NCBI GenBank assembly: GCA_904063045.1
Contig: CAJFCJ010000014.1
Coordinates: 1 to 64,000, forward strand
Length of the DNA stretch: 64,000 nt
Source of the DNA: Dimorphilus gyrociliatus
Taxonomy: Eukaryota; Animalia; Annelida
Reading direction: 5' to 3'
The translations under genes and the position numbers were made by a program. The notes under the pieces are model-generated. The model saw nothing but the letters and a program-made list of their open reading frames with translations, was not told the DNA's origin and searched no databases. This document shows, piece after piece, positions 1 through 60,581 of this stretch (positions are counted from its first letter, which is position 1; every line of letters starts with the position of its first letter).

Positions 1-925
1 TGGCTTGTTGAATTTATTAAGATGCTTTTTGGATTAACCAATGCCCTCCTCATTTTAGTTATGTAATGAATTCTTTTGCTAAAGGATGTAAAGCATTTGT
101 GCCTAAACTACTTGATGACATAATAATATTACCAAGTCGCTGGACCAACATTGGGAAGCATTGGAGACCATTCTTCAACAGATTCAAAAGTACAATTTTA
201 AGATTAAACTAAGTAAATGTGTGTTTTTGAAAGAACAAGTTCAATTCTTGGGACACATTGTATCAGAAAAGGGGATTGAAACAGATAAGTCCAAGACAGA
301 TAAATTATATAATTTACAGCCACCAGTGTTTGCAAATTCACTACTAAGCTTTGTTGCATTTTGTGGCTATTACAGAAAATTTATACAAGATTTTGCAAGA
401 GTAGCTAAACCTCTGTATATGTTAATGAAACTACATGGGAAAAAGGATAAATTGCAATGGACTGAGGAAGCCAAGCAATCATTTTTCAAGTTGAGAGATG
501 CAGTAGTTAACCCTCCTGTATTACAACTACCTGATTTTGCTAAAGATTTTCACTTAACAACAGATGCATCGAATGTAGCTGTAGGAGGAGTTCTTGAACA
601 AGTTTATGTAGATGAGAATGGGAAGAAAACAATGAAACCCATTGCCTACGCTTCAAAACAATTCAACAATAATCAAATGAAATATGCAGCCTATCAAAAG
701 GAAGCATTTGGTGTTTACTGGGTTGTAAAGAAATTTTTACATTACCTTCAAGACAGAGCCATTCTTTTTATATACTGATCATCAGAGTCTAGTACAAATG
801 TTCAAGCAAAACAAATTGAATGTCAGCACAGCAAAATGGGTCATGGCTTTAATGGATTTAAAATTTACAATTATCTATGTGACAGGAGAAAAAATAGAGC
901 AGATGCATTAACAAGATTAGAAGAA
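1..925 (+). pseudogene. pol: pol: reverse transcriptase C-terminal part and RNase H, frameshifted
   Basis: FGLTNAP and an xxDD-III motif (~100-130, across a frameshift), KLSKCVFLKEQVQFLGHIVS, SFVAFCGYYRKFI. RNase H motifs TTDASNVAVGGVLEQ, PIAYASK, KEAFGVYW, YTDHQSL and RADALTRL. Several single-base frameshifts. Confidence 0.93.
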
Positions 926-965
926 TATACACCCCCAAGGAAAGTAACATTTGAAGAGCTAATTC

Positions 966-2488
966 ATGGAAGATCAAAAGGAGAATTCTCCCTCTATTTC
1001 AGTTAAAATGGAACAGTATGAACATACACCAGAGTTAACTTTTGTAGCTACCAGTGATAACAGTGAAGAGAAAATTGATTTGTCTTCTGTTGACTTACAG
1101 TCAGAGCAAGAAAAAGATGTGAATTTAAAATCAATTAAAGAATATTTAACATTGGATGGTCAGCTACCTATTCCTTATTTTGGAACTTTTACACCTTTCA
1201 TAATGGAGATGTTTGTTCACAAGGAAATGATCTGGATTATCCTTGAAGAAAGAAACATTCTGGTTTTACCTGACCATTTGATGCTAACTCTGCTCCCTAA
1301 ATTCCATAAAAATAAAATTCACAATCACCATGGACCCAGAATGAATTACAAATAATTACAAAGACCTTTTGGCACCCAAAATTAAAGATTATGATTGAGA
1401 ATTCAATAAAGGATTGCACTTTGTGTGAACAAATGAATGGTAGGAGTAGAGTATACCCTTTGGTAGAAACCTTTCACCCTGCATCACCAATGGAGTTGGT
1501 AGCCATGGATATAATGGACCCTTACCCATGGTTAAGTCATACAGATTCATACTTGTGATAGTGGATCATTTCAGTAGATACACAGTTTTATATGCACTCA
1601 ACAGCAAACCAGTAAAGAAATTGCAACCTTCTTTTCAACAGATTTTTTCCCATTTTTGGAATTCCAAAACAAATGTTGACAGATCAAGGAAGAAACTTTG
1701 TTGGTAAAGCTTTTAAAGAGTTTATGAAGGTATTAGGTATTGAGAAAATCCAAACAACAGCTTATAGAAGCCAGAGCAATGGACTAGTTGAACGAAGAAA
1801 TAGAGAAGTGAGGAAGGAAATCAATAAATTAGTGGTGGAAGAAAATCAGCATAACTGGGTTGCAAACCTACCTTGATTCAAGCATTTTTGAATCAATCAC
1901 CTGTAGGAAGTACAAGACTACCACCCAGGAACTTCTTTTTGGCACCAGCACAAGAACACTGATTGATGTAACAATGCATACTACCTCTCCTGAAACAAAT
2001 GTACTATTTGTATTCAATCACCAGCAGCAATTAGTACAGTTAAGAGCTACAGCCTTCTGTAAATCCATCATGGCAAAAGAACAATATAGGGAAAGAAAGA
2101 ATAGAAATCTCAATCTTCCAAAATATTTTGAGGTTGATGATGAAGTATTCTTAAGAAATGATGCTGCAAGAATTGCAATAACAAAAATCCTTCTTTAAAA
2201 TGGTTAGGCCCATACCGAATAACAAAAGTCAATCATCAAAAGTGGATATATGAAATACAAATGGATGATAATACATGCAAGTTGGTACATGGTAGCAGAT
2301 TAAGACTAGCCAATGAATCTAATAAGTTGGAAACAGGGAAAGAAGCAACAACAATCTTTCACCTTGTGGAGAAGGAAATAACACACCTCCAATATCTTTC
2401 TCAGGTAGAAGGAAGAAATGACTTCCAATTCCGTTTGAAGAATCAAAAGGCCAAGAAGTCATTGCCTTGTGTGACACAGGAGCATTGA
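966..2488 (+). pseudogene. pol: pol: integrase (HHCC zinc finger, DDE core, GPY/F module), frameshifted
   Basis: HNHHG...CTLC zinc finger (~1310-1425), VAMDI, VDHFSRY, FGIPKQMLTDQGRNF...TTAYRSQSNGLVERRN core, and WLGPYRITKV (GPY/F, ~2200-2230). Broken into several short ORFs. Confidence 0.92.
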
Positions 2489-5400
2489 GATCCTTTATTA
2501 CTGAAAAAGAAATCAAGTTAATGGATGTTACAATTATGGATAAAGAAACAATTGGCTTACCAATTATAACTTCAGCTGATGGGAAAGCTTTAAAGCAAAA
2601 AGGAAGCGTAAAGCTGAATATCCAATTTGCTGGAGAAAGTATGGAACAAGAATTTATAGTTATGGAAAATCTAGACATAGCAATAATACTTGGTTGTGAT
2701 TTCCTACAAACTGTGGGAGCAAACCTCAATTTTGAAGCTAAACAGTGTTCTCTCAAATTTGATAGAAGGAAAGGGAACCTGGCTGAAAGAATAAGGCAAC
2801 CTCAACTAAACAAAGTCACTATAGCCATGATGGGACAGCATGACTCTTCATCAGAAAGTTCAGATAGTGATGACTCAGAGATGGAAGTTACTAATTCTGA
2901 TACTGGTTATGACACAAGCAATACTTTCAAAACAGACAGTAATTACAGTCTCAATGAACCTTCAAGCTCATCTGAAAGTGATGACACAGAAACAAATAAT
3001 GAACTGGATCAAAATACAGATTCAGAGGCAAACATTATCTCTGATAGAGAAGATGAAATATCTAGTTCAGACGATGAGTCAATAATTATTGAAAGCGAAA
3101 TTATTGATATAACCCATTCGGATAATGAGTCAATAATTATTGAAGGTGAAATTATTGACATAACCCATTCAGATAATGAGTCCCTCATAGTGGTAGATTC
3201 ATCCCAAGATGAGAAAGAAAATACAAGTGACACAGACAATGAGTCAGTCATATTTTTAGATGAGACTAAAATCATCTCTGAACAATTAGATTCCCAACAA
3301 GAAGTGGAACCACAATATATAGAGTTAGAAGATGGAATAACTATCAGAGTGGAACAACAACACAAAATTTTCAACCATTCAACTATAGCCAACACAGGAA
3401 GAGCTAACATGAAACAGATGTTGTGGCTTCCACTAGTGATGACTGTAATGGTGATCTGTGGCTGCATCCACTCAATAACAGTCCCAAAACCATCCTACCA
3501 AGGTGCCCATGTTACAAGTGCAAACATTACCTTAACATTTAAACCACCATTATACTTTTGTTCTAACCAACTACCAAGCCAGGCATTTGATCTAGCAGAT
3601 GAGCCAACTTGTAATATAGAATCACAAGAAACCAAGACAATTACAGCTGATATCTATGAATTGAACTTGGAAGAAATTGAAACAAGAGCAGTAAAATGTC
3701 AAGTGTATCTAAGAACTAATTTTTACACTTACTATTTCTTTGGAGCAAAGAAGAGGAGGATTGTTAACTCAGTTATCAAAGTAACTCATGATCAATGCAG
3801 ACAGATGATAAAAGACAAACGATCTTTTCAAGGAAAACCTTTAATGGTGAAAAGAAACACTTGGATCCACCAAGATCAGTTTCCTGCTGCCTACACATGG
3901 CCAACAACGACCAAGGTGCTGGAATACACCACAATTATCCAGTTTGGCAAAGCATATTGGCAACCTCCTAATATGAAAATTACAACTAATCTGGACTACC
4001 TGGAAGATTGTTTACCAGGGCAGTCCTATTGTGAAACAGAAGAGGCAATTATTGTCTTTAGGAACCTCAAGAATAATTACACACTTGGGCAACAATCACC
4101 ATGGATAAAAATTAGCAACAGAATTAGTTGTATCAAATTTGCTGGTCACTATTCTTGTCCAGGGTATTCTATTCTGGACATCCCTTATCAAGATAAGTTT
4201 ATTGATGGAATTGGTGGTCCTGGAACAAAAGTACTAGTACCACTGGAGGAACAGAGTTTAATACAGGAAACAAGCAAGGAACACCTATACAATTTGCTAC
4301 AATATCAGAAGATTGGCAAAAATGAAGAAAAACGACTATTAAACTATCCCAATAAAGTTAAAGAACAAATTATACTATACAAGCGAAACAACCCCTTACC
4401 AAGTCTTAACCAATGGTACAGAGAAACAAACACAAAGTATAAACTAATGAGAAATAAAGGCACACTCAAGGAAGTTGTGATATATCATCTACAACAACCC
4501 ATTAGTCCATCTTACTGGGAGCTGGATAACTATTATATCCAAGAAATGCTGCAAGCAGTCAATTGGACAAGGGCAACAAGACAATCTGTCACGATTTCAA
4601 AATATGTATACAGTGAGAAAAGAATCAAAAAGAAGGTATTACCAACATTGGGCATATGGTATAAAGGACCACCAGCCAGAGAATTCAAGATTACCTATGA
4701 AGGAATTTATTTTACTCTACACATGAGAATGGCTAAAAAGCAGATGAAGAAGGAAGCAAAACTGAAACATAAGATAAGTAAAAACCCATACCACAAATTC
4801 CCATTGGAAATGAGAGAAGCTGCCCAAACATCTACCTTACTACATGGTATTGATTCAAATTTTAAGAATTTAAAAAAGTTTACCCAACAGCTGTCAAGTC
4901 TTCTCTGCAATCAATTTGTTCAAAGAAGCAGAATGATGGCATTACTAGCAAATTTGGATCCTCAATTGACCACAGTGTTAACAAATGAGTTGGGAATGCA
5001 CAGTAGTCAGATGGGAGAATTAGCTATAATTAAACAATGTTCACCAATAGCCTCAACAGAAGTAGTTTGTGACTTAAGCATGATAAAAAAGAATAACAAA
5101 TGTTCTCAATTTTTACTTGTCACCATGAACAACCTGCTTTTCCAAGTAGAACCAGTTACTCATGTTTTACAGCAAGTCAATCCTGAAGAGATTACCTATA
5201 ATGAGTGTAAGTCTAACAAGTTATTCTACAAAACAACTCACAACCCATTAAATCCTATAAGAAACCAACCAATGAAAGACAAAACGTATGTGTATTATTC
5301 AGAAAGAGGATGCAGATTTCACACTGTGTCTGCAAAATCCATGCAGTTACATATCCACAATCACCTTTCTGAACCAAAAATTGAAATTGCCAGATTAGCT

Positions 5401-5829
5401 GATCTACTCCACCATGGGGTAAAGAAGGATATTGCATACCAGCACTCAAAAATTAAGCAAGTTATCAGTTCACTGGAACAGAAGCAGGCAAGGTATGATA
5501 ACATGGTCACTGTTGCAGAGAAAAATGGCATTGTACCCAATTTATCTGGAATTAAAAAGTTTTTCCATAGTTGGTACTATAAACCTGGGAAAACACTTTA
5601 TGTTATCATACGAAATATTTGTTTGAGTATTGTAGTGTCAATGGTATGTATCATCATTTTCAACTATATTATTGGAAGAAGAAAACAAAGAGAAGAAATT
5701 GCTACCCCAAGTGAGAGCACAGATAACTCTCCTGAAAACCCAAAACTAATGAAACAAAGTTGTAGCTTTAGTCAACATCAAACTAATGAAGAAGAACAAC
5801 CACCTGTAATTCTCATTAAATCAAGATGA
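2467..5829 (+). CDS. env: 1120-aa ORF: retropepsin-type aspartic protease, acidic linker, then envelope glycoprotein (signal-like segment, Cys-rich ectodomain, TM, short tail)
   Basis: IAL-CDTGA catalytic motif and IILGCDFL. Ser/Asp/Glu-rich linker. Hydrophobic MKQMLWLPLVMTVMVICGCIHS at 3409-3474. Ectodomain with several N-x-S/T sequons. TM segment VIIRNICLSIVVSMVCIIIFNYII at ~5602-5672 followed by GRRKQR. Lies directly before the PPT and LTR. The annotated start is a TTG; the frame is open from 2422. Confidence 0.9.
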   Translation: MCDTGALRSFITEKEIKLMDVTIMDKETIGLPIITSADGKALKQKGSVKLNIQFAGESMEQEFIVMENLDIAIILGCDFLQTVGANLNFEAKQCSLKFDRRKGNLAERIRQPQLNKVTIAMMGQHDSSSESSDSDDSEMEVTNSDTGYDTSNTFKTDSNYSLNEPSSSSESDDTETNNELDQNTDSEANIISDREDEISSSDDESIIIESEIIDITHSDNESIIIEGEIIDITHSDNESLIVVDSSQDEKENTSDTDNESVIFLDETKIISEQLDSQQEVEPQYIELEDGITIRVEQQHKIFNHSTIANTGRANMKQMLWLPLVMTVMVICGCIHSITVPKPSYQGAHVTSANITLTFKPPLYFCSNQLPSQAFDLADEPTCNIESQETKTITADIYELNLEEIETRAVKCQVYLRTNFYTYYFFGAKKRRIVNSVIKVTHDQCRQMIKDKRSFQGKPLMVKRNTWIHQDQFPAAYTWPTTTKVLEYTTIIQFGKAYWQPPNMKITTNLDYLEDCLPGQSYCETEEAIIVFRNLKNNYTLGQQSPWIKISNRISCIKFAGHYSCPGYSILDIPYQDKFIDGIGGPGTKVLVPLEEQSLIQETSKEHLYNLLQYQKIGKNEEKRLLNYPNKVKEQIILYKRNNPLPSLNQWYRETNTKYKLMRNKGTLKEVVIYHLQQPISPSYWELDNYYIQEMLQAVNWTRATRQSVTISKYVYSEKRIKKKVLPTLGIWYKGPPAREFKITYEGIYFTLHMRMAKKQMKKEAKLKHKISKNPYHKFPLEMREAAQTSTLLHGIDSNFKNLKKFTQQLSSLLCNQFVQRSRMMALLANLDPQLTTVLTNELGMHSSQMGELAIIKQCSPIASTEVVCDLSMIKKNNKCSQFLLVTMNNLLFQVEPVTHVLQQVNPEEITYNECKSNKLFYKTTHNPLNPIRNQPMKDKTYVYYSERGCRFHTVSAKSMQLHIHNHLSEPKIEIARLADLLHHGVKKDIAYQHSKIKQVISSLEQKQARYDNMVTVAEKNGIVPNLSGIKKFFHSWYYKPGKTLYVIIRNICLSIVVSMVCIIIFNYIIGRRKQREEIATPSESTDNSPENPKLMKQSCSFSQHQTNEEEQPPVILIKSR
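3067..3183 (+). repeat. 51-bp coding tandem repeat (SD[D/N]ESIIIE[S/G]EIIDITH, ~2.3 copies) in the acidic linker
   Basis: Read directly from the DNA and the translation. Confidence 0.9.
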
Positions 5830-5844
5830 AGGGACTCATCTTCA

Positions 5845-5859
5845 CAAAGAAGGGGGAAG
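5845..5859 (+). other. Polypurine tract (plus-strand primer)
   Basis: CAAAGAAGGGGGAAG immediately before the LTR start TGTACAAC. Confidence 0.9.
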
Positions 5860-5860
5860 T

Positions 5861-6495
5861 TGTACAACTTTGGTTATATTTTACATGCTTGAACTCTATT
5901 ATTTTATGCAACATATACATGTACATCTTAAAACCTACGCAAGAAAATGCTATAACATTGGCCAAACATAAGTCTGATTAGTCAGCTTGAAGGTTCATCT
6001 TTAATTACCAATAAAGGTTTGGCCAAGTTATAATTTAATTAACTTGCCTAGGGTGTGGCCAAGTTATAATTCAATTAACCTTCCTAAATGTTGAACCTTG
6101 TAACATCCTGTTACTAAAGATAAATATGAACTACACATTTCGGCAACTGTAAAGTGATGATTGGATGTCAGAGACAAACCTCAAAGTATATAAATCCTCA
6201 TTATTCTCATTTGGCATGCAGCTTCCATCTGGACCCAAGGACCTGGGAAAATCATCTGGAAACAACCTCCACTGGAACCATCCATCTACTCCTCAACATT
6301 GGAAGACAGTTTGGTAATTTGGCAACCTGCTATTACAAACTATCTACTCTGCTATCGAACTCTCATATTGTTACTTGCTTAAGTATTATTATTGCGAATA
6401 AACCATTTTAATTTAAACATTTGTTTAAAGGTTCGAGTAGAACCAGTATTGTTATAACTTGCAAACGCATAGATTTTGCCAGCAAGAGCAGTACA
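5861..6495 (+). repeat. 3' LTR (635 bp)
   Basis: Inverted termini TGTAC...GTACA and follows the PPT. The boundaries match the copy at 58640-60027. Contains TATAAAT (~6189), AATAAA (~6398) and a ~39-bp internal tandem duplication (~6021-6086). Confidence 0.92.
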
Positions 6496-9400
6496 ATATA
6501 GGATTCTTTAAAAGGATAAATGATACTTTGATGTCTTTCCAAAGTCAGTAACAGCACAGAAAGTGATGTTTGTATTTGTGAACATGCCATTGCTATTCCA
6601 AGAAACTTACAGAATTTACTATTTTGCCATTTATTGCCATTTTCTATATAATAATTTTTAAAATATAGATCTACAATGGCAATTGAAATCACATATAACG
6701 ACGTTTGAATAATTGCTTAGAATTAACAGTAATCTATATGATTTTGACAAGGTTTTCATTAGAACTAATACAAAGGATAGCAAATTCCCTAAAACTCCAA
6801 ATATTCCAAAACACCAAAATACAATTCTAATCCAATTTAAACCAAGTAAATCTGTGCATTTGTTAAAAAATGATTTTGACGGTTTACATAGAACGTGTCG
6901 ACCAATCAGCTTCCAGATTAAACAACATAAGTAAAATGATTTATTAAAGATTTTTTGTATTGAATTTAAATTTTTAGCAATTTTAGTATGAATTTCAGTT
7001 GGAAAGTTTGCTTCATTCAAATGAAGTTCAGTTATTTTGGTTATTGGTTTAAAAAAATCATTAATAATATAAAAAATTTTGCAGTAGGAAATTTTTAAAA
7101 TATTTAAATATTTAAATGAATTTAAAATGTAATTTAATTTTTTCAAAGGATTTCTTGAAATATCTAAATATCTTAAATTTGGGGAACAGAAACTTTTGAA
7201 CTGGCTTAAATCTTGTAAATTATTTTTAGAAATATGCAAATGTTGGAGTAGTAATAGTGTTGTATTTCTGCCTCTAAATGATAAAAATTCCAATTTACTG
7301 CCTAAAATTCTTAAATGAATTAGATTTGGATAAAAAATTGAATTCAAATTGGAAAAATTAATGTTTTCGGTGACACTCAAAGATTTTAGGTTTGTTAGAA
7401 CAGTTTCATTTCTTAATTGAATATCACCAAAAATAGCCAACTTTTTCACATTGATTGATATATTTAATGCAATACTATCAATACTTTTACATGAAAATTC
7501 ATACAGTGTTATTCTACGACATTTTGGATATGAAAAAACATTTGAAATGCAAAATAATTCATCACTTCCATATTTACAATCGACAATATTATTGCATATT
7601 TGATTAATTGGAAAAAAACTTGATTCATTTCTACATTTGAAATGTCCTTGTGCAATGAAATTTTCTTAAAAATAAAAAGAAAATTTACACTGAAAAGTAA
7701 AAATAATTTTTGTCTTCCTCTCATTTTATTACCACAATTCAATTCATCTTCATTGTTTAGGCAATGATTAACACCATCGCATACCAGATTTATTGATATA
7801 CAATATTTATTCTCCTGGGACAGATACTCGCCAATTTCACATTTCTTTCCATTGCAATGAGATAAATCACTGCTTTCTTTATAGAAACCTGGTAGCATAC
7901 TTCCTAAAGAGTCATACTTCAGGGAGCATTTCTTAGCTGGGGGTTTCTTATATACTGGAGCACATATTTTTTGGTTAAACTCATCCGAAAAATCATCACA
8001 ATCAACTTTTGAATCGCAAACTTGGTCTTTTCTAACGCAGTTTTGGTGACAATTGCTCTGGTTCTTTCCGCATTCTATTTTTGAGTGGTTTACTCAAAAG
8101 ATATTTTTGACAATTGAAATGGGAAAATGGATAAATCACTACTAAGTACATAAAGTGTTTAGCTCTAGTGTTTAAGTCATTGCTCAATGGTTGATTGTCT
8201 TAAATGTGCATTTAGACCAAACATTGAAAATTTGACCTAAATGCAAAGCAATAACCAGTTCTACAACTTTCAAAAATATCAATTTACTATTCAATTTTTA
8301 TACAATGACTTCAAATATGGCTGTTAATGATTTTCCAAAGAGCTCTAACAGTTTCTGTTCATCTTGGTAGAATTATCAATTGTTGCATAAACATCTATTT
8401 ATTGGTTTTACCAGATTGAAATTTAGAAACAATAGCATTTTCATTGTTACCTAATTCATCAGATGTATCAAAACAATTTCTTTTATTATTACAAATGTCC
8501 TCAATTTTCACACATTGACGATTTTTACATTCTCTGAAACATTTTCAAATTTTCAATCCTATCAAAAAAAAATATGGGACTGGCAAAATCAATAAGGTTT
8601 TCTAACTAATGAAAGAGTTGTTAGGGTTAAGAAGCTAATATCAGAGATAAGTCTTGATTGATTGTTACATTATCTCTTTCTTACTTTTCTCTCTTTTTTA
8701 TTTTTTACTGAGAAATTTTCTAATATAACAAATTTTTTTTAACAAAGTTACATACTTTTCATTTTTAAGATAACAATGATCTTCATTTCTTGCTTTTTTT
8801 TGGCAAGTTTATTATATTTTAGCAAGAGAAAAGAAATGTTTGAATAAAATTTTTGTCCTACTGCAGAAAATTTCATCAAATCCGTTTGGGCAATCTTCAA
8901 TAAAATCGCAAACTAATGTGCAGCTGATAGTTAAATTTTCATCTGGAAAACAGTAGAAATAATTTAGCGATGACCATAAATTTGATTCGCATAGTTTTTC
9001 ATCCTCTCCAAATGGGCAATCATTTATTCCGTCGCAGAGATAAACACCATTGATATAAACTCTACTCTCATTAAAATAAAACACGTTAATTGGAATGGAT
9101 CCATCAATTCCCAAATACATATTTAACTTGGAATTTAAATTTATATTTTTATCTAAAAAGAAAGATTTTTTTTTCAAAAAAAGTTATTCATTTATTTTCT
9201 TTATAAAATTTAAATACAAATAATTTTTTGGCAGATGTAATAATTTGCTTGAATTTGGTCACATGGTATCTTATATATTTTCCATGCTAAGGAAAAAAAC
9301 ACAGTTCAGTTCCATGAATCAATAGGAAAAATTTAATTTCCTACTATATTTAATGAATGTTGTAATAAATAGGTCAAATGACTATAGCAGAGAGAGAAAG

Positions 9401-10005
9401 TGATAATTAGTCTCTTAAAATGGCTCATTAATTTGATTGAACTCTACACTCACTGATATGTATTGTATACAGTCACCATTGAAATTTTTCAGCTGTCTTG
9501 CCTTTTGTAACTCAGCAAGAAAGTCATAAAAATTTAACTTTTCTATAGATAAAGTTGGAATTGATGAAAAATGTTGACATTCTGAAGAAACATACAATCA
9601 TTTATCATTCACTCTTTTACCTGGCTTTATCGTTGTAGGATAATATGATAATGTTATATTTGATGCTGTGAAATGGCATAGGTATCTTTTCATAAAAATA
9701 TTTCTTCACTTTTTTCCTAAAGATATTCATTTTACCTTTGGTATTGTTCCAGATAGATGGAAATATTATGTGAAAATTTGTATTATCGCCCGCCATTTTA
9801 GATTTGTAATAACATTCTTCTATTTTCGATTTAACTACATCGCAAAAGTATCCGCTTTCTTTGTATGTAATAAAATCAAAAATCCTTCTATATGAAATTT
9901 TCTATTATTAAATTCATCAAATTTCAGTTTGTTTTCTTGAGTATTAAGTCCTCTAATCAAAATTAGTAATCTTAAAATTTGCACTAAATCCACTAAGGAA
10001 GCCAT
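6496..10005 (-). pseudogene. GRL101-like LDLa-LRR-7TM receptor gene 1, cut just after TM3 by the LTR element
   Basis: Signal-like MASLVDLVQILRLLILIRGL at 10005. LDLa repeats (LCDGINDCPFGEDE, VCDFIEDCPNGFDE, VCDSKVDCDDFSDE, VCDGVNHCLNNEDELNC), LRRs, CTDLLG hinge, TM1 FGIFGVLGNLLSF, and TM3 LLLTLERHQSIIYPF running straight into LTR sequence. Several frameshifts, some possibly sequencing errors. Confidence 0.85.
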
Positions 10006-10642
10006 TTTACATTCGAGATTATTGAAAAAAATATAGTTCAATTATTTCCCTGAGCTTTATAAAAAAGTCTCTGTACTGTAATTTAATAATACATGGATTG
10101 TTATAATAGATAATAGAAATTGTCTCATATCCCTAAATCCTTTGATTTTCATAGAAAGTTGTCCAGTGTATTCAATTGTGTTTTTAATTGGTTTTATTGT
10201 CATTTCTGAAGAGAGAAATTTAAAATTCTAAGTTTAACTGATTCTGTGTTCTGTTGAGTTTGAATTTCCTCCTTATAGGGTTACCGTTTTTCAATTTGAT
10301 AAAATAGTTTGTCAACTAAGTTATCACCTTTCATAAGACTCAAGTAAAAACTTTGAAAGCAGTTAGACAATAGTTTAGTTTTCTTCTTCAAAAAAACATT
10401 TTCAAAAGTTCTTTTTTTCAACTAATTCTTCCATGACAATCAAAAGATACAATCACTCATCTGTATCATTGTATCTTTATTGTACTTGACCTCACATACC
10501 AACAAATACGAAAGTAAAATTGAAATGGCTAAACACAATACTTAAATTTTATCGAATTGCTCAATTTCGCTCCGTATTGCGAAATCTTCGAATGAAGGAA
10601 TAAATGAATAACTAAACAGGCAATTTCAGTTTAACAATCAGT

Positions 10643-11219
10643 AATGATGACTGAAGAAAAACCTAAGAGTTGTTTAACTGATGACAATAGCATTTGCGCA
10701 ATTTGTCTGAATCTGGGAAGATAAGATGCCAAAAATACTCAACTGTAATCATATCTTTTGCTCAGAATGTGTAGCGGAACTATTAGAAAACGAATCAAAT
10801 ATGCTTCGTTGTCCTTATTGTAGAAAAGTGACAAGTTTAAACAAAAGAAATATCGATTTGGTGACTGATTATCTCGTTCCCAGTTCAATTGAGGAAGATT
10901 TACTGAATAATAAATATTGTAAACTTCACAAAATGGCAGCACTAGCGTCATGTAAAACTCATCATTTAAAATATATCTGCCTGGATTGCTTTTTGAATAA
11001 TCATTTGTCATGTGAATTTTCAACAGACAATATTGATTTAAGTGAATATTTTGATACAACAGATACAATTTTTGAACTTAGCACAATGTGCACATCACAT
11101 TCCATTGTTCGGAATGTAGTAAAAGTATTAGAAAAAGTTGACAATGTAGAAATATTTGATGTATCACACAACTCAAGCATAGAATTTGAGAGAAATCGAT
11201 TGTGTAGATTCATAGTTTT
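10643..11219 (+). pseudogene. RING finger + B-box-like (TRIM-like) gene, frameshifted near 10710 and truncated by the fold-back
   Basis: CAIC...(frameshift)...LNCNHIFCSEC...RCPYCRK (C3HC4 RING) and YCKLHKMAALASCKTHHLKYICLDCFLNNH (B-box-like). Codons after ~11220 are mirror-image sequence. Confidence 0.75.
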
Positions 11220-14200
11220 CCATTTTTTCTTTCCTGAATTGCAAACTATGAATTCTGACACAATCGATTTCTCTCAAAGTTCTATGCTTGAGTTGTGTGA
11301 TACATCAAATATTTCTACATTGTCAACTTTTTCTAATACTTTTACTACATTCCGAAATGGAATGTGATGTGCACATTGTGCTAAGTTCAAAATTGTATCT
11401 GTTGTATCAAAATATTCACTTAAATCATATTGTCTGTTGAAAATTCACATGACAAATGATTATTCAAAAAGCAATCCAGGCAGATATATTTTAAATGATG
11501 AGTTTTACATGACGCTAGTGCTGCATTTTGTGAAGTTTACAATATTTATTATTCAGTAAATCTTCCTCAATTGAACTGGGAACGAGATAATCAGTCACAA
11601 ATCGATATTTCTTTTGTTTAAACTTGTCACTTTTCTACAATAAGGACAACGAGCATATTTGATTCGTTTTCTAATAGTTCCGCTACACATTCTGAGCAAA
11701 AGATATGATTACAGTTGAGTATTTTTGGCATCTTATCTTCCCAGATTCAGACAAATTGCGCAAATGCTATTGTCATCAGTTAAACAACTCTTAGGTTTTT
11801 CTTCAGTCATCATTACTGATTGTTAAACTGAAATTGCCTGTTTAGTTATTCATTTATTCCTTCATTCGAAGATTTCGCAATACGGAGCGAAATTGAGCAA
11901 TTCGATAAAATTTAAGTATTGTGTTTAGCCTATTTCAATTTTTACTTTCGTATTTGTTGGTATGTGAGGTCAAGTACAATAAAGATACAATGATACAGAT
12001 GAGTGATTGTATCTTTTGATTGTCATGGAAGAATTAGTTGAAAAAAAGAACTTTTGAAAATGTTTTTTTGAAGAAGAAAACTAAACTATTGTCTAACTGC
12101 TTTCAAAGTTTTTACTTGAGTCTTATGAAAGGTGATAACTTAGTTGACAAACTATTTTATCAAATTGAAAAACGGTAACCCTATAAGGAGGAAATTCAAA
12201 CTCAACAGAACAACAGAATCAGTTAAACTTAGAATTTTAAATTTCTCTCTTCAGAAATGACAATAAAACCAATTAAAAACACAATTGAATACACTGGACA
12301 ACTTTCTATGAAAATCAAAAGGATTTAGGGATATGAGACAATTTCTATTATCTATTATAACAATCCATGTATTATTAAATTACAGTACAGAGACTTTTTT
12401 ATAAAGCTCAGGGAAATAATTGAACTATATTTTTTTTCAATAATCTCGAATGTAAAATGGCTTCCTTAGTGGATTTAGTGCAAATTTTAAGATTACTAAT
12501 TTTGATTAGAGGACTTAATACTCAAGAAAACAAACTGAAATTTGATGAATTTAATAATAGAAAATTTCATATAGAAGGATTTTTGATTTTATTACATACA
12601 AAGAAAGCGGATACTTTTGCGATGTAGTTAAATCGAAATAGAAGAATGTTATTACAAATCTAAAATGGCGGGCGATAATACAAATTTTCACATAATATTT
12701 CCATCTATCTGGAAATACCAAAGGTAAAATGAATATCTTTAGGAAAAAAGTGAAGAATATTTTTATGAAAAGATACCTATGCCATTTCACAGCATCAAAT
12801 ATAACATTATCATATTATCCTACAACGATAAAGCAGGTAAAAGAGTGAATGATAAATGATTGTATGTTTCTTCAGAATGTCAACATTTTTCATCAATTCA
12901 ACTTTATCTATAGAAAAGTTAAATTTTTATGACTTTCTTGCTGAGTTACAAAGGCAAGACAGCTGAAAAATTTCAATGGTGACTGTATACAATACATATC
13001 AGTGAGTGTAGAGTTCAATCAAATTAATGAGCCATTTTAAGAGACTAATTATCACTTTCTCTCTCTGCTATAGTCATTTGACCTATTTATTACAACATTC
13101 ATTAAATATAGTAGGAATTAAATTTTTCCTATTGATTCATGGAACTGAACTGTGTTTTTTTCCTTAGCATGGAAAATATATAAGATACCATGTGACCAAA
13201 TTCAAGCAAATTATTAATCTGCCAAAAAATTATTTGTATTTAAATTTTATAAAAGAAAATAAATGAATAACTTTTTTTTGAAAAAAAATCTTTCTTTTTA
13301 GATAAAAATATAAATTTAAATTCCAAGTTAAATATGTATTTGGGAATTGATGGATCCATTCCAATTAACGTGTTTTATTTTAATGAGAGTAGAGTTTATA
13401 TCAATGGTGTTTATCTCTGCGACGGAATAAATGATTGCCCATTTGGAGAGGATGAAAAACTATGCGAATCAAATTTATGGTCATCGCTAAATTATTTCTA
13501 CTGTTTTCCAGATGAAAATTTAACTATCAGCTGCACATTAGTTTGCGATTTTATTGAAGATTGCCCAAACGGATTTGATGAAATTTTCTGCAGTAGGACA
13601 AAAATTTTATTCAAACATTTCTTTTCTCTTGCTAAAATATAATAAACTTGCCAAAAAAAAGCAAGAAATGAAGATCATTGTTATCTTAAAAATGAAAAGT
13701 ATGTAACTTTGTTAAAAAAAATTTGTTATATTAGAAAATTTCTCAGTAAAAATAAAAAAGAGAGAAAAGTAAGAAAGAGATAATGTAACAATCAATCAAG
13801 ACTTATCTCTGATATTAGCTTCTTAACCCTAACAACTCTTTCATTAGTTAGAAAACCTTATTGATTTTGCCAGTCCCATATTTTTTTTTGATAGGATTGA
13901 AAATTTGAAATGTTTCAGAGAATGTAAAATCGTCAATGTGTGAAATTGAGGACATTTGTAATAATAAAAGAAATTGTTTTGATACATCTGATGAATTAGG
14001 TAACAATGAAAATGCTATTGTTTCTAAATTTCAATCTGGTAAAACCAATAAATAGATGTTTATGCAACAATTGATAATTCTACCAAGATGAACAGAAACT
14101 GTTAGAGCTCTTTGGAAAATCATTAACAGCCATATTTGAAGTCATTGTATAAAAATTGAATAGTAAATTGATATTTTTGAAAGTTGTAGAACTGGTTATT

Positions 14201-16339
14201 GCTTTGCATTTAGGTCAAATTTTCAATGTTTGGTCTAAATGCACATTTAAGACAATCAACCATTGAGCAATGACTTAAACACTAGAGCTAAACACTTTAT
14301 GTACTTAGTAGTGATTTATCATTTTCCATTTCAATTGTCAAAAATATCTTTTGAGTAAACCACTCAAAAATAGAATGCGGAAAGAACCGAGCAATTGTCA
14401 CCAAAACTGCGTTAGAAAAGACCAAGTTTGCGATTCAAAAGTTGATTGTGATGATTTTTCGGATGAGTTTAACCAAAAAATATGTGCTCCAGTATATAAG
14501 AAACCCCAGCTAAGAAATGCTCCTGAAGTATGACTCTTTAGGAAGTATGCTACCAGGTTTCTATAAAGAAAGCAGTGATTTATCTCATTGCAATGGAAAG
14601 AAATGTGAAATTGGCGAGTATCTGTCCCAGGAGAATAAATATTGTATATCAATAAATCTGGTATGCGATGGTGTTAATCATTGCCTAAACAATGAAGATG
14701 AATTGAATTGTGGTAATAAATGAGAGGAAGACAAAAATTATTTTTACTTTTCAGTGTAAATTTTCTTTTTATTTTTAAGAAAATTTCATTGCACAAGGAC
14801 ATTTCAAATGTAGAAATGAATCAAGTTTTTTTCAATTAATCAAATATGCAATAATATTGTCGATTGTAAATATGGAAGTGATGAATTATTTTGCATTTCA
14901 AATGTTTTTTCATATCCAAAATGTCGTAGAATAACACTGTATGAATTTTCATGTAAAAGTATTGATAGTATTGCATTAAATATATCAATCAATGTGAAAA
15001 AGTTGGCTATTTTTGGTGATATTCAATTAAGAAATGAAACTGTTCTAACAAACCTAAAATCTTTGAGTGTCACCGAAAACATTAATTTTTCCAATTTGAA
15101 TTCAATTTTTTATCAAATCTAATTCATTTAAGAATTTTAGGCAGTAAATTGGAATTTTTATCATTTAGAGGCAGAAATACAACACTATTACTACTCAACA
15201 TTTGCATATTTCTAAAAATAATTTACAAGATTTAAGCCAGTTCAAAAGTTTCTGTTCCCAAATTTAAGATATTTAGATATTTCAAGAAATCCTTTGAAAA
15301 AATTAAATTACATTTTAAATTCATTTAAATATTTAAATATTTTAAAATTTCCTACTGCAAAATTTTTTATATTATTAATGATTTTTTAAACCAATAACCA
15401 AAATAACTGAACTTCATTTGAATGAAGCAAACTTTCCAACTGAAATTCATACTAAAATTGCTAAAAATTTAAATTCAATACAAAAATCTTTAATAATCAT
15501 TTTACTTATGTTGTTTAATCTGGAAGCTGATTGGTCGACACGTTCTATGTAAACGTCAAATCATTTTTTAACAATGCACAGATTTACTTGGTTTAAATTG
15601 GATTAGAATTGTATTTTGGTGTTTTGGAATATTTGGAGTTTTAGGGAATTTGCTATCCTTTGTATTAGTTCTAATGAAAACCTTGTCAAAATCATATAGA
15701 TTACTGTTAATTCTAAGCAATTATTCAAACGTCGTTATATGTGATTTCAATTGCCATTGTAGATCTATATTTTAAAAATTATTATTAGAAAATGGCAATA
15801 AATGGCAAAATAGTAAATTCTGTAAGTTTCTTGGAATAGCAATGGCATGTTCACAAATACAAACATCACTTTCTGTGCTGTTACTGACTTTGGAAAGACA
15901 TCAAAGTATCATTTATCTTTTAAAGAATCCTATATTGTACTGCTCTTGCTGGCAAATCTATGCGTTTGCAAGTTATAACAATACTGGTTCTACTCGAACT
16001 TTAACAAATGTTTAAATTAAATGGTTTATTCGCAATAATAATACTTAAGCAAGTAACATATGAGAGTTCGATAGCAGAGTAGATAGTTTGTAATAGCAGG
16101 TTGCCAAATTACCAAACTGTCTTCCAATGTTGAGGAGTAGATGGATGGTTCCAGTGGAGGTTGTTTCCAGATGATTTTCCAGGTCCTTGGGTCCAGATGG
16201 AAGCTGCATGCAAATGAGAATAATGAGGATTTATATACTTTGAGGTTTGTCTCTGACATCCAATCATCACTTTACAGTTGCCGAAATGTGTAGTTCATAT
16301 TTATCTTTAGTAACAGGATGTTACAAGGTTCAACATTTA

Positions 16340-16628
16340 NNNNNNNNNNNNNNNNNNNNNNNNNNNNNNNNNNNNNNNNNNNNNNNNNNNNNNNNNNNNN
16401 NNNNNNNNNNNNNNNNNNNNNNNNNNNNNNNNNNNNNNNNNNNNNNNNNNNNNNNNNNNNNNNNNNNNNNNNNNNNNNNNNNNNNNNNNNNNNNNNNNNN
16501 NNNNNNNNNNNNNNNNNNNNNNNNNNNNNNNNNNNNNNNNNNNNNNNNNNNNNNNNNNNNNNNNNNNNNNNNNNNNNNNNNNNNNNNNNNNNNNNNNNNN
16601 NNNNNNNNNNNNNNNNNNNNNNNNNNNN
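16340..16628. other. Assembly gap (289 N)
   Basis: Run of N. Confidence 1.
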
Positions 16629-32733: not shown

Positions 32734-35700
32734 TTACATTTGTTTAATGATAGCTTGATTTTTATTTTCTATCTTCTTTAAGATTTCAGCATATGAATGA
32801 AAAAAAGGATTTAAAACAGAATTCATGGGTACCAAAACAAGAATGATGATTGAATACAACTCATTGCTCATTTGAACATTTATGAAAATTGAAATTATTC
32901 CTGAAAATTTAGTAAAAAAGAAAAGTTATATTCAAAATAAAATATATAAGATTTTAATGGTTCTTTAACACTTTTCAGGGTTCAGTATGCTATTTTAGTA
33001 GTAATGTTATCCTATAACTCTTTGGTTGCCTAATCCTGAAAGTTGTTGAAACAGTATCTCTCTATCAGTGTGGAATAAAAAATACATTTTGATTCTCTGT
33101 TTGTCACTAAGGGGAGAGAATTTGCATTCTATTTTATTATACTTATGATTAATTCTTAAACTTTTCTAGCTTTTTGAGACAACAAAAGCTGTTTGAAACC
33201 CTATGAAAAATAATTTTTACGACACATTGTGTAGATGATACAGAAAATATTAATTTTCTTATTTGAACAATTATCATTATAATTTTGCATTAAAGTTTCT
33301 ATTTTCTGTCTCATAAAATTTGAAATTTCCTAAATCATTTGCCAACCTAAAATTGATAGTGGTAGAGAACAAAGAAGATTTGAGATAATAATCAAATAGA
33401 CAGATTTTGACAATGATTTATTCCTCCTGTTTTTAACCATAAAATGTTTCCTACTCTTTTTAACAATAGAAACAATTTTAAAGTAAAAAATGCTATTAAC
33501 AACTGATATAACAAAAATCATAATTCCAAAAATGATTAAAGAATACCATGATGAAATGTTTGAATCACTTCTTATATGAAGTTTAAAACAAATTGGGGAA
33601 TTGTCAAAATAATTCTAAGAAATTGAATAAAATATTTTAAATAGTTCAAGTTGAAAAAAAGAACTTTTTACTTCAAAAAAATAGATTGGAAAGAAACCAA
33701 GGAAAAAACTTAAACCCAAATATATAAATGTTATAAAAGTATTGATTTTCCAACTTAAAAATTGATGCATTGGATACTTGACTACAAAATATTTTTGAAA
33801 ACTAATAAGACATAAACTAATAGTTGAACAGATTAATGCAAAATTCATAATTCCTCCAATAAATTTACAAATAAATCCAGATATCCAAATAGCTTCGTGT
33901 TCGAAAAATGTTCCTTTAAAATATTTATTTGTCACGGCAATAGTTATTAAATACGACGCTATTAAGAGGTCAGAAAATGACATTGTTATATAAAATCCAT
34001 TATACTTCTTCTTTACAGACAGAAAATGAAATGTTAATGTCAATATATTTAGTAAAATGCCAAATAGGCCTAAAAACCATAAGAATATATCCAAATATTT
34101 GGACGCAATTAAATCGGAACACGTGTTGACAATTGAAGAGGATGGTGAACAAAACTGAATAGATTCTGCATATTTTTTTGTCAAACAGCATGCTGTAAAA
34201 TATTTACTTTTCAAAATTTTTAATTTATTCAAAGGTTGAATTAAATTTTTTAATTGTCTATATGGAAGTTCTGTTAGAGATAAATCCAAAAAATGTATAT
34301 TATTCTTTAAAAGAACATTTTTTTCAATTGTATCTATTGTACAGCCTCTCAGAGAAAAGTAGGTCAACATTCTAACCTTTGAAAAAGTGACTGCATTTAA
34401 AGTAGTAATTTTTGTATAAGATAAATCTAATTTTCTAAGAAAAGTTGATAAAGTCAATTGAGAAATTGTTTGTAATGGATTAAAAGATATATCTAAAATT
34501 TCTAGAATATTCTCTTTCGTTATATTTTGATATTTAAAGTGTTGAATATTATTTCTTGTTAAATTTAAAACAATTAAATTTGGAGTTGAAAATCTTTCTA
34601 AAAAATCTTTCAAATTGCTATCAACAATTTCTAATTTTGTCAATTTTGTTGATATATATGACTCAGTTAATAATTTAAAATTAATTATGCTTAATCCTTT
34701 AATATGATGAGGAATTGAAGTTAGTTGAAATTTTTCTCTCCCATTCAAAATATTTGATTGACATTGATATTCATAAAAAAGTTGACAGGAACATTTCCTT
34801 GGACAATAGGAAATATTTTTAGAACAAAATATTTCATCATTTCCTCTTTTACAATTAATTATACCATCACAAATTCTGCTTATATTTATATATTTCATTT
34901 CCTGTTCACATTTGAAAAAACCTTGTGGTTTAAAATATTCTGTTGGACAAAATTTATTGAATAGATATTGAAACAATTTTTATGCTTTCTTTCTACTCAA
35001 CAAAACTCACTACAATTAAATTCATCATCACCATACCAACAATGATTAATTCCATCGCAAACTTGTTCAATAGATATACAATATCTAGATGATTGGCAAA
35101 GATATTCCCCTTTCAAACATTTCTCTCTATCACAATATTTAATTAATGAAAATGGCTCCCTAACTCTAACATCTAAATTTCCAACTGAATTATACTTGAG
35201 GCTACATTTCTTTTTATAATTGTTGACATTTTGATATCTGTTGAAAAAGAACAGTTGAAAGTGATCCAATACAATTATATCATACCTTTCGGAGAGTATT
35301 GAATCAAATTTCTTATCACATTCTACAGAATCTTCATCTGTGCCATCATAACAATCATATACAAAATCACATATAATATCTTTTGATTGACACTTATTAT
35401 TACAGAGAAAATGTGTTTTTGGATTGCAGCCTATAACATTATCTTTCAATATTCAACTATCAAAAAGACTTGTTTTCCTCACCAAAAGAATTATTTCCAT
35501 AAGATTTATAACTACTACAGTCTTCATCACTTGAATCATGACAATTTCTCTCATTATCACAAGTTTCACTTCTCTCAATGCATTGTTTATTTTTACAAGA
35601 TCTAATAATAAAAAACAATGAAATAACAATAATTTAAGGCAAATGCTTAACATTTGAATTGATGAACAAGATTTGTGTTCTTTTAGAGAAAAACTGTTTG

Positions 35701-37578
35701 TTAAAAGCATAAACTTATCATAAATATTTTACCGCAAAAAATCTCATCCGATTTATCATTACAATCATATCTATAATCGCAAACATTTTGATACGGAACA
35801 CTTTGATTATTTGATTGACATTGAAATTTGAAATATTCAGAACAATTTCTCTCGTCTTCTCCGTTAGAACAATCATATTTTCCATCACAAACTTGAATTA
35901 ATGAAATACAAATGTTTTCGTAAGAACAATGAAAAGTTGTACCAGTACAAGATACAGAAAGGATTAGATGCCTTTTCCAGACATTCAAACTAAATGAATT
36001 TTTGGCTGATATTTCATAAAAAAAAAAAGTTATAATAATAATAGTGACAAATGCCAAAGTTTTACTTGTTGAAACTTGACAAACTAGAAACATTCTGATC
36101 AGTTGCTGACATGGAACGCTTCTTTTTACATAAACAAATTGACTTGTACGCTCCACCATATCTCTTTTTATAAGATAGCATCTACTTCTTGGATAATTAC
36201 TAGATGTAAGTTGAGCACGTGTTTTAAATATCTGAGGTTGAATATCAAACTCTTTCCCCCTAACTAGAAAATTATCCTAAATATAGAATATTTTAAGTAG
36301 TTATTACTTAAAGTAAAAATGATTGTTTACTTCCATATAGAATCCTGACCAAAAAGTGGGAGGCATATTTGTTGGAGTTCTTAGACTAGTGTCATTTGTT
36401 TCTTTCATTGCTATGGGAATATTTGAAAGATAAATTTATGATAAATTTGTTAATATGACTACTAATTAACCAATTGTAATAACTAGTCCATATTTCATAA
36501 CAAAACTAACAGGGTCATAAATATCAATTAAATAAGTTTTGCTTTTTTCATTTTCATAAAAGTAAATTCTTTTATAAAATAATAATTCTAAAATTCTAGA
36601 TTCATAATTTAACGGTTCGTCCATCATATTTAAACCTTTTTCTTTACATTTTTCCATTGAATTAATTGTAGATAATTTGTCTCTTTGATTAAAAATATAA
36701 TAGCATGTATCATAAATTTTCATATCATCATTTTGGGGACAGGCTTTAAAAAAAAAGAAACATTGCGTAATCACTTCTATGCTCAATTTTCTTTTTTTTT
36801 ACCAGTTTCTCTTTTTCTTGAACATTGAACTTGAAAAGTTGCATGAATATCCTGTTTTATTCTATCCTCTCTAAAATGGTGGATGTATCAATAATTGAAA
36901 TTAGTTTTTTTCGACAATTAGATATATTTTTTATTTTACACAATTCCTAAATCTGTTTTACTTTCTGAGAGAAATCTGCAATTCTGAATATATGAATCAT
37001 TTTTCAAACACTGAACATCATAATTGTTGGGTAGAAAGTGTTCATATATTTTCAATTTCATTGTTGGAAGAATAATAATTGTTCCAGAAAAATATCCAAA
37101 ATATTGACAAACAAGATTAATTTCATGCGAATTAGTTGTTAATAGGCTGACTGGATTCCATGTTTTATCCATATAAATCTCTAATACCCCATCAATTTCC
37201 AATTTGTTTTCATCTGTTTTGTAATAATTACCAAAATTTTCATTAAATATTCTCATTTCTTTTTCTATTGTGGGAAAAAAAAGTTAATATTTTCCAAATA
37301 TTCAAAAAAAAAAAAACAAATTGAAAAAATTGAATAATGGAACCAGTTGAATTTCTTTCTTTATCGCAAAAAACATTTAAATATGTTACATAAACATCTT
37401 GATTTTGAAATATGCAACTATCTTTGGAATTATTTGTATATTTACAAAAATCATATTCATTTTGAGTGTTGTTCTTCAAATTTAAAAAATATATTTCTTT
37501 TTGAATTTTATATGTGCTTAAAGATACTAACCAGTGATATGATTTGAACATCATTATCATCATAAGAACAGTAATCAT
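32734..37578 (-). CDS. GRL101-like receptor gene 2: SRCR-like and C-type-lectin-like N-terminus, LDLa repeats, LRRs, 7TM
   Basis: Exons with DGVLEIYMDKTWNPV...LVCQYFGY (SRCR-like), CPQNDDMKIYDTCYYIF (CTL-like), about five LDLa repeats, LRRs, CSDLI hinge, TM1 GLFGILLNIL, TM3 LISFQKYFVV, TM6 IIISNLLCSLPL, TM7 VLVPMNSVLNPFFHSY, stop at 32734. Confidence 0.85.
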
Positions 37579-54350: not shown

Positions 54351-54808
54351 TCGTAAAGTAGAAGAGGTAGGAAGCATCTGAAAATTTTTATTAAAACTAG
54401 ACAAAATTTCCTACACAGTAGTCAATTTTTTTCTGAAAAAATCCCATTGATTACCCTTCAAAATAGCCCTTATAAAAAAAAGTTGGTTTTATGAAACATT
54501 TGTTTCAGCACTGTATTAATATTTAAATATTTGTAATTCCTATTATTAATTGTTTCCTGTCAAATTACTCTAAAAACTCCATCTATCAAATATCTTATAT
54601 CTTATATTGAAGTTCTATAGTGGGCGTTTTCTCCAGTGGATGTTTTCTCCTGTACCCTAAACTTATATGCTTTGCAAATAGGCATGTACATTGTTTAATT
54701 GTTTGTTATTATTCTTTACCAGTTTTCCTTTTACTTTTCCAGAGAGGACGGTAATGGAAAATTTTTGTCCCAGTTGAAAATTGACTGTAGTACAGGTATA
54801 TTATTATA

Positions 54809-55462
54809 CCAATAATCACATCAGCAGAGGGAAATGCTTTAAAGACAAAAGGAAAAGCAAAACTGAATATTCAATTCAATGGAAGAATTATGGATCAAGA
54901 ATTTGTTATTATAGAAAAATTAGATATGGCTATATTACTTGGTTGTGATTTCTTAGAAAATGCTGGAGCTCTTATTGATTTTGCAACAAAACAAGTTTCT
55001 CTTCCTTTCTTTATCAGAAAAAGACAACCAGTTAGAAAGTTTCTGCAATATAACGAAAATCACCAGACAAAATTTGGAAAACAAGGTAGTGTAAAAAAAG
55101 TAACTGTTGGAATGATGGAACAACATTTTGAAGATTCTGACACTCCATCTGAAGTTTTTGATACTCCATTTGAAGTTTCAGATAGCGTGGACTCAGAAAT
55201 GGAAGTTACTGATCCAGATACTGGCTATGATACAAGCAATACTCATGATTCAAGCATAGTTTATGAGGGATTACATGATTTTGACTCAAATAGCAATTAT
55301 GGCACAGCAGGAAAATACAATAATTTTAATGAATTTTTTGCACAGTCAAATTTAAATTTTTATACATCTGATAAAAAATTGAGGTTGAATAGTTTCCACC
55401 AAACTTTCAAGCGAACTCATGCTGAGATGGCATGCATGAGTAACAACTTTCTGTACAAGTAG
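54809..55462 (+). pseudogene. Diverged relic of the protease + acidic linker of the env-bearing gypsy family
   Basis: PIITSAEGNALKTKGKAKLNIQF...QEFVIIEKLDMAILLGCDFL...KVTVGMMEQH...DSEMEVTDPDTGYDTSNT aligns collinearly with the ORF at 2467. The catalytic DTG part is absent. Confidence 0.9.
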
Positions 55463-60027: not shown

Positions 60028-60464
60028 ACACAAAAAACAAACAAGCAATAAAACAAAAAATATAATTGCAAGGAAGGATTTAATTACAGAAGTGGTCCTT
60101 TCCTCCCCTTCAAGATAGTAGTAAGTGAAGCTATCCTCTGAAAATGGCCCTGATGAGTCTTTGCAAAAGTGGAAGATGAAACTATGGGATGTCAAAAATT
60201 CTTTGGCAATCATTTAAAAATTCAAACACTGATCAACATAAAACATATACTCAACAAAATTTCATTGATCATAGTTGTACAAAAAGTTCTTACTCTTGCA
60301 TTCCATCTTGAGATCTCTTGAAATTTTCAATGAAAGTTATTCAACTTTTGTCAGAACTCAGATCTTAGTGTCTAGTTCAACATTATAAAAACCTAACCCT
60401 AACCCTCTCTTCTGATTGTGCTAATCCCTAATGCCAAGTCCTAATCCTAACCCCAAGGCCTAAC

Positions 60465-60513
60465 CCTGATTTGGCCCCCTCTGACTATTATCTCTTTGGG
60501 AGATTGAAGGACC
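60465..60513 (+). pseudogene. Short mariner transposase fragment
   Basis: CCTGATTTGGCCCCCTCTGACTATTATCTCTTTGGGAGATTGAAGGAC = PDLAPSDYYLFGRLKD; ends at a 10-N gap. Confidence 0.7.
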
Positions 60514-60523
60514 NNNNNNNNNN

Positions 60524-60581
60524 AACCCTAACCTAACCCTAACCCTAACCCTAACCCTAACCCTAACCCTAACCCTAACCC
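60524..60581. repeat. Interstitial (TAACCC)n telomere-type array next to a 10-N gap (60514-60523)
   Basis: About 10 units, nearly perfect; degenerate CCTAACCC tracts on both sides. Confidence 0.9.

Follow-up and report, generated by a model that had tools for sequence, protein, structure and literature searches.

We describe here a Ty3/gypsy retrotransposon of the annelid Dimorphilus gyrociliatus in which a retropepsin-type protease stands between the integrase and the envelope protein (Env), an order that we find to be a trait of the family. Its 3′ part occupies positions 1–6495 of a 64,000-nucleotide (nt) stretch (contig CAJFCJ010000014.1, positions 1 to 64,000; hereafter the window). The window starts inside the reverse transcriptase (RT), and from there the order reads RT–RNase H, integrase, retropepsin, acidic linker, internal signal sequence, Env of the glycoprotein B (gB) type, polypurine tract and long terminal repeat (LTR). 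Most of what defines a Ty3/gypsy element is present: a gypsy-type RT and RNase H, an integrase placed after RNase H (Pfam), a TG..CA LTR and polypurine tract in the window, and a primer binding site (PBS) behind the LTR in contigs from sequencing runs. All 46 long relatives of the RT–RNase H piece likewise carry a gypsy-type RT and/or RNase H. What is violated is the single protease before RT (PR-RT-RH-IN, with PR, RH and IN for protease, RNase H and integrase), since the protease was found after the integrase. The Gmr1-like trait of an integrase before RT is violated as well, as RT and RNase H precede the integrase (Pfam).

The C-terminal part of RT and RNase H lie at 1–962 on the plus strand, as do all features of the element, and are spread over several frames, with the longest open piece at 119–778; the Pfam matches are RT_RNaseH_2 (E 1.7e-28), RT_RNaseH (1.7e-20) and RVT_1 (1.1e-6). 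The RNase H–integrase linker and the integrase follow at 963–2421, again in several frames, with an H2C2 zinc finger, a core and a GPY/SH3-like C-terminus around 2200–2300. Integrase pieces are found at 1316–2488 (Integrase_H2C2, rve and Integrase_p58_C), the first two matching weakly because of the fragmentation; our own integrase profile matches 1481–1876, and the GPY motif lies at 2207–2215 in the frame 2162–2488, where Integrase_p58_C (E 0.015) stays below the Pfam cut-off. The retropepsin (2422–2820, catalytic D-T-G at 2473–2481) then heads an open reading frame (ORF) that continues through an acidic, Ser/Thr-rich linker (2821–3408), which carries a 51-nt tandem duplication, into Env and ends at 5829. 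The first-pass annotation of this DNA had described the integrase C-terminus as running into a retropepsin at the head of an Env ORF, and the Pfam matches, motif positions and ORF reading all agree; the ORF is 1135 amino acids (aa) long stop to stop. Linker residues 134–300 are 29% Asp/Glu, 28% Ser/Thr and 2% Lys/Arg, and put about 170 residues between the protease and the next hydrophobic stretch. Behind the Env stop codon (5827–5829) come the polypurine tract (5844–5860, read from sequence) and the 635-nt 3′ LTR (5861–6495; TG...CA with inverted termini). There are no Rfam matches in 1–7000. At 58640–60028 the family has left a solo LTR of 93% identity, interrupted by about 780 nt of unrelated inserted sequence.

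In hidden Markov model searches the first 133 aa of the ORF match RVP_2 above its cut-off (E 1.3e-7, 32 bits against 20.3), gag-asp_proteas (6.5e-7) and RVP (5.5e-6). Both signatures of a retropepsin (clan AA, family A2-like) are present, D-T/S-G within IALCDTGA (2461–2484) and the C-terminal hydrophobic-G-x-D within IILGCDFL (2683–2706). A profile from 19 pre-RT gypsy proteases also matches the domain (E 3e-11), and a PDB sequence search returned weak matches only, at E 0.047 and above. Not only is the catalytic motif intact, the protease is under purifying selection. A remnant of a diverged second subfamily at 54802–55313 (plus strand) retains the C-terminal two thirds of the protease and the start of the linker in one open frame, with 75% nucleotide identity to the element over 196 nt and 57% aa identity. 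Over 64 codons, the nonsynonymous rate (dN) between the two is 0.231 and the synonymous rate (dS) 0.726 (Fisher p 0.001), and the two shifted frames show no such synonymous excess; dN/dS is about 0.3, from one pair and 64 codons. Two named D. gyrociliatus proteins, P0010 (DgyrCDS14789) and P0017 (DgyrCDS14462), contain pieces of the element's env, LTR translation and protease, and P0017 provides a third protease version, 64% identical and with the C-terminal flank in common. Three diverged versions from this species (the element in the window, the 54.8-kb copy and P0017; 57–64% identity) keep the protease together with its C-terminal flank, and the protease is conserved. The P0010 and P0017 gene models are themselves chimeras, with element pieces first and TSP1/C1q or TIR domains behind, and are probably annotation artefacts.

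Whether this order belongs to the family or to a faulty assembly can be judged from sequencing runs. Six of seven contain the stretch or part of it, five of them with half or more of its words, and contigs were compared from four (X1, X2, X4 and X5, from two coded studies). Single contigs bridge integrase, protease and linker in all four at even depth, and three of them reach well into Env; they extend over 8–4834 (X1), 713–5089 (X2), 1546–4769 (X4) and, with one skip, 172–3349 (X5). Almost no contig covers the flank behind the LTR (6497–6700), so that the contigs represent the family and not the locus. Because they bridge integrase, protease and Env, the domain order is a family trait, and the first-pass annotation's RT-RH-IN-PR-Env is real. 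A nested insertion, or a long-read misassembly joining two elements, is hardly tenable: the assembly is rich in insertions and deletions here and a fold-back palindrome follows the LTR, but the short-read contigs of all four runs cross the junction at even depth. In the contigs the end of the LTR is moreover linked to window position 8 through 2181 letters; the element then measures about 9.3 kb, in agreement with the published distance between the LTRs, and no LTR copies were found inside 1–5860. The palindrome, of 5.1 kb, runs from about 6085 to 16339 with its centre near 11230, one end lying within the LTR and the other at an N gap (16340–16628). Between its arms there are 50 gap openings and only 3 mismatches, which argues for long-read error rather than decay; it is likely a long-read artefact in an unpolished stretch.

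The same contigs bear on the reading frame. In the window, the integrase and protease frames overlap with a −1 offset, as first reported, and this offset is absent from the run contigs: all three of the four runs that cover the overlap read it in one frame, while the fourth covers only 51 bases upstream. The window's integrase frame switches coincide with length differences from the run contigs. X1 differs from the window over 4.8 kb by 17 gaps as against 10 other letters, and 11 of the 12 gaps listed (of 25) are common to all four runs. Many similar breaks in the pol of the window are likewise absent from the run contigs. All six gaps of the X4 contig (1546–4769) fall at or before the overlap, so that the protease–Env frame agrees with the window. 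Since the run contigs read through in one frame, the offset is not a biological feature, and a programmed −1 frameshift is ruled out.

X5, from the second coded study, shows three skips of 59–66 nt, at 2501–2560, about 5183–5241 and 6114–6179, in protease, env and LTR, the first of them 60 nt long and at high depth. Their ends read GT..AG on the minus strand, and they look like spliced antisense RNA, possibly host silencing transcripts. A genomic deletion as the source of the 60-nt skip was set aside for a probable minus-strand intron on account of these ends.

Downstream of the linker, the ORF continues as a type I membrane glycoprotein. Hydropathy places hydrophobic stretches at aa 336–354 and 1066–1084, with a Cys-containing ectodomain between them and a tail after. 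The first corresponds to a predicted internal signal sequence of Env (3409–3483, with a Met at 3409), and the Env proper (3484–5829) comprises ectodomain, transmembrane helix (5617–5673) and cytoplasmic tail. The stretch with the predicted signal sequence corresponds in alignments to the N-termini of env relatives that were called as proteins of their own, P0002 and P0004 among them. Of all representatives searched with HMMER, 12 proteins reached E 0.001 or lower, and the Env alignment consists of the window Env, 11 of these 12 and one cluster member (13 members). Rhabdo_glycop_FD is found in 4 of the 13, and the alignment profile matches rhabdovirus-type G chains, in the fusion-domain region, and Epstein-Barr virus gB chains at E 0.005–0.013. 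Foldseek with an alignment-based Env model (mean predicted local distance difference test score, pLDDT, 50.7) has herpesvirus gB as its best match (E 2.6e-9), and all 36 among the matches listed are gB, with TM-scores of about 0.15 over the whole query, hence a local match. The ESM Atlas also points to a gB-type protein (score 0.76), as a lead only; a single-sequence fold of the whole ORF is uninformative (pLDDT 32.4). On a model of modest confidence, Env is thus assigned as a class III, gB-type fusogen, and the traits of an errantivirus Env of the herpes simplex virus (HSV)/gB kind are all predicted, namely a position after pol, a signal peptide, a class III ectodomain and a transmembrane helix. 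The protease–Env ORF contains no furin site (R-x-K/R-R). The full 1135-aa ORF has no homologs among 7976 scored candidates of 624–1987 aa, which is not evidence of isolation.

In terms of origin, the first-pass annotation left a relocated and a second protease side by side; a second one is now somewhat favoured. The closest of the 46 long RT–RNase H relatives, P0063, is 59% identical in RT and sister to the element in the RT tree (91 columns, 47 rows; support 99 in the Shimodaira–Hasegawa-like approximate likelihood ratio test, SH-aLRT). Immediately ahead of its RT lies the C-terminal half of a protease, which the protease tree places with the three post-integrase proteases (95/100) and which is 35–50% identical to them over 40 residues, as against 8–38% for 15 other pre-RT proteases. 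That the P0063 half is closest to the post-integrase proteases points to an origin in the lineage's own pol protease, from which the post-integrase protease is likely derived. In P0010, the nearest ESM Atlas clusters of the stretch before RT (residues 1–135) are retropepsins (best score 0.95), and the branch leading to this domain is very long (7.46). The unseen 5′ part of the element, 2181 nt, has room for gag and a protease-like domain by a length estimate. A diverged protease-like domain thus probably still precedes RT in the family, and the post-integrase protease would likely be a duplicate whose original copy then diverged.

For the role of the protease, the account towards which we lean, if only by a little, is that integrase, protease, linker and Env are joined in frame and that the protease, with an activity predicted here, would release the integrase, and the enzymes before it, from the Env leader anchored in the membrane. 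The order, the single frame, the motif, the selection and the hydrophobic segments are seen directly, the remainder being inferred. The protease would have arisen by copying of the lineage's pol protease. The internal signal sequence of the polyprotein would thread Env into the endoplasmic reticulum, where host signal peptidase would free the Env ectodomain and leave Gag-Pol-protease-linker held to the membrane on its cytosolic side by the signal anchor. Retropepsins work as dimers that cleave at their own borders; here the gathering of such tethered chains would let the post-integrase protease pair up and cleave on either side of itself, yielding a clean integrase C-terminus. The initial proposal had the protease release Env itself from a polyprotein. 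Hydropathy and membrane-protein biology speak against this, because an ectodomain made luminal by its own signal sequence neither needs a cytosolic protease for its release nor has one in the right place.

Other accounts of the protease have to be weighed against this one. The relocation may have been completed, with the post-integrase protease the sole active one, processing Gag, RT and integrase, and the pre-RT domain a dead relic. We hold this to be possible though doubtful. The closeness of the post-integrase copy to the P0063 pre-RT protease fits it, as do the very long branch of the P0010 pre-RT domain and its lack of a catalytic motif; however, the predicted start of P0010 falls at about the place of the motif, so that the gene model may begin too late to include it, the domain is still retropepsin-like by its score, and P0010 is a decayed copy. 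Just as tentatively, the element could encode a single Gag-RT-RH-IN-PR-Env polyprotein whose only active protease lies beside the Env signal anchor, so that maturation would be switched on at the membrane.

Protease and Env could also be made separately from Gag-Pol, from a spliced or subgenomic RNA or an internal start, in which case the Env leader would carry the protease into particles and so couple maturation to the uptake of Env. Env does have a Met at 3409 and a predicted signal sequence of its own there, and the env of retroviruses and of Drosophila gypsy is made from spliced RNAs. We nevertheless regard this as improbable, given that the frame is continuous from the integrase in the run contigs, that no plus-strand GT..AG joint is among the joints listed (15 of 24; 3 of 3), with no run recorded as RNA, and that the only acceptor-like site in 2900–3410 is weak and lies downstream of the protease. 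A protease carried in frame as a passenger without function, after a template-switch duplication, seems more improbable still: retrotransposons often carry recombination relics, and the dN/dS estimate comes from a single short pair, but the synonymous excess is significant, and motifs and frame are kept across versions as diverged as those above.

Several observations weigh against the favoured account of a duplicated protease that frees the enzymes from the Env leader. P0063 fills only 35% of the protease-tree columns and comes from a single contig. The P0010 pre-RT stretch shares only 122 of 256 features with the retropepsin clusters, its predicted protein has neither a D-T/S-G motif nor a match to protease profiles, and P0010 is a copy with an internal deletion and an env piece of only about 77% identity. 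The 2181 nt at the 5′ end are unread, so that gag-pol continuity and a canonical catalytic motif lie outside the view. X1, X2 and X4 possibly include the source sample of the window, and contigs merge family copies; should the X5 skip be genomic after all, the main copy of that population has a damaged protease. The 54.8-kb copy and P0017 were not seen adjoining integrase or Env, and viral-contig and metagenome scans yielded no element with the same order from another animal. Cleavage, dimerisation and expression of the protease are predicted only. A chromodomain that would be expected from the published record of the family (below) was not found, which either leaves the family assignment slightly in doubt or comes from the lower sensitivity of the tools.

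The first-pass annotation had taken the lineage to be undescribed. Instead, its family is already in print together with its Env. The main LTR family of D. gyrociliatus is Dingle (Dinophilidae Gypsy-like elements), with a gB-like Env (Martín-Durán et al., PMC7854359), and the supplementary lists of Chary and Hayashi (PMC13524379) include Annelida_Polychaeta_Dgyr_errantivirus_1, with LTRs at 1669–2299 and 10348–10983, ENV_HSV, 7 copies and the label GAG-POL. The likeness of the latter extends to LTRs of 631 and 636 nt against 635 here, an LTR-to-LTR span of about 9.3 kb, ENV_HSV, and a listed 12-nt PBS equal to that behind the LTR in the run contigs. Dingle shares with our element the Ty3/gypsy type, the host and a gB-like Env downstream of the integrase (PMC7854359). 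We therefore take the element in the window to belong to Dingle / Dgyr_errantivirus_1, as matched by host, LTR length, span and listed PBS. There are differences in what the sections covered of PMC13524379 report: pol is given as PRO-RT-RH-IN with 'protease' once, Dgyr_errantivirus_1 has no POL-ENV label although other elements do, and a chromodomain is placed at the pol C-terminus. We found no chromodomain with the Pfam Chromo model or with a profile of six sequences, both weaker tests than HHpred. For Dingle, the text and legend of PMC7854359, as distinct from its domain-map figure (Extended Data Fig. 3d), name no post-integrase protease; 'aspartic' and 'proteinase' do not occur in the parts covered, and 'protease' is absent from five supplements and occurs once in the preprint, for an unrelated method.

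Precedents exist for parts of the arrangement. POL-ENV fusions are among the element labels of PMC13524379 (four rows in supplement 4 and one in supplement 5, as far as covered). Gmr1-like elements are Ty3/gypsy elements that also have a non-standard pol domain order, but according to the portion covered of PMC2774666 they move the integrase to a copia-like position, whereas here the integrase stays and the protease follows it. A post-integrase protease was not found in the literature texts searched, a search outside which lay figures, bioRxiv supplements, deposited sequences, Repbase and GyDB, and none of the papers listed in literature searches describes it in its title or the opening of its abstract; the covered part of PMC8905726 held nothing relevant to protease order. 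The first-pass claim of an undescribed layout is thus narrowed. As far as these texts go, what is new is the protease between integrase and Env, while the family, its Env and POL-ENV fusion elsewhere are already known.

The order is also unmatched among the gypsy elements that served as controls. These comprised 25 loci and 14 proteins with at least 900 nt after the integrase core, out of 67 RT-then-IN elements, and none of the 39 has a protease within 1.5 kb after the core by the profile of 19 pre-RT proteases. One control locus, L018, seemed at first sight to read RT-IN-PR and was rejected, since the protease in question comes after the gag of a tandem copy, about 3 kb further on. In six further loci (L028, L049, L053, L058, L059 and L061) an integrase match lies upstream of RT, which may reflect a Gmr1-like order, tandem copies or other element types. 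The metagenome scan gave 65 loci, used only as controls, and no close relative (best segments 23–47% identity); scans of viral contigs for env, its C-terminus and RT gave no relative. The pol P0029, with canonical PR-RT-RH-IN, and the related env P0004, which has a start of its own, were both found on an 8781-nt Logan contig; provided that this is a single contig, the usual order is present in a more distant relative. In a different superfamily, the Bel/Pao elements roo and Cer7 have a single ORF with Env in frame behind the integrase, and we know of no protease between the two in either.

Elsewhere in the window, ORF lists read by eye show genes with LDL-receptor-A-like, leucine-rich-repeat and GPCR-like stretches at 6658–8093, 33615–36276 and 46857–48662 (minus strand), which we presume to be GRL101-like receptors. 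Telomere-like repeats surround a short N gap at 60390–60650, and at the window end (63195–64000) a tandem array with a 15-nt unit codes for a Thr/Pro-rich, mucin-like stretch.

Pol domain order is a defining and very stable trait of the superfamilies of LTR retroelements, with Gmr1 as the usual exception, and a conserved protease between integrase and Env, if true, would be a further arrangement. If relocation were the correct account, this would be a third domain order for Ty3/gypsy pol, caught midway with a dead relic before RT. The arrangement bears on how elements that encode Gag, Pol and Env in one frame separate their cytosolic enzymes from a membrane protein, and the separation of a fused Env from Gag-Pol is an open problem raised, in the sections covered, by the survey of envelope-carrying gypsy elements (PMC13524379). 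As the family is multi-copy and the worm is cultured in the laboratory and has a small genome, this processing question is testable on natural material.

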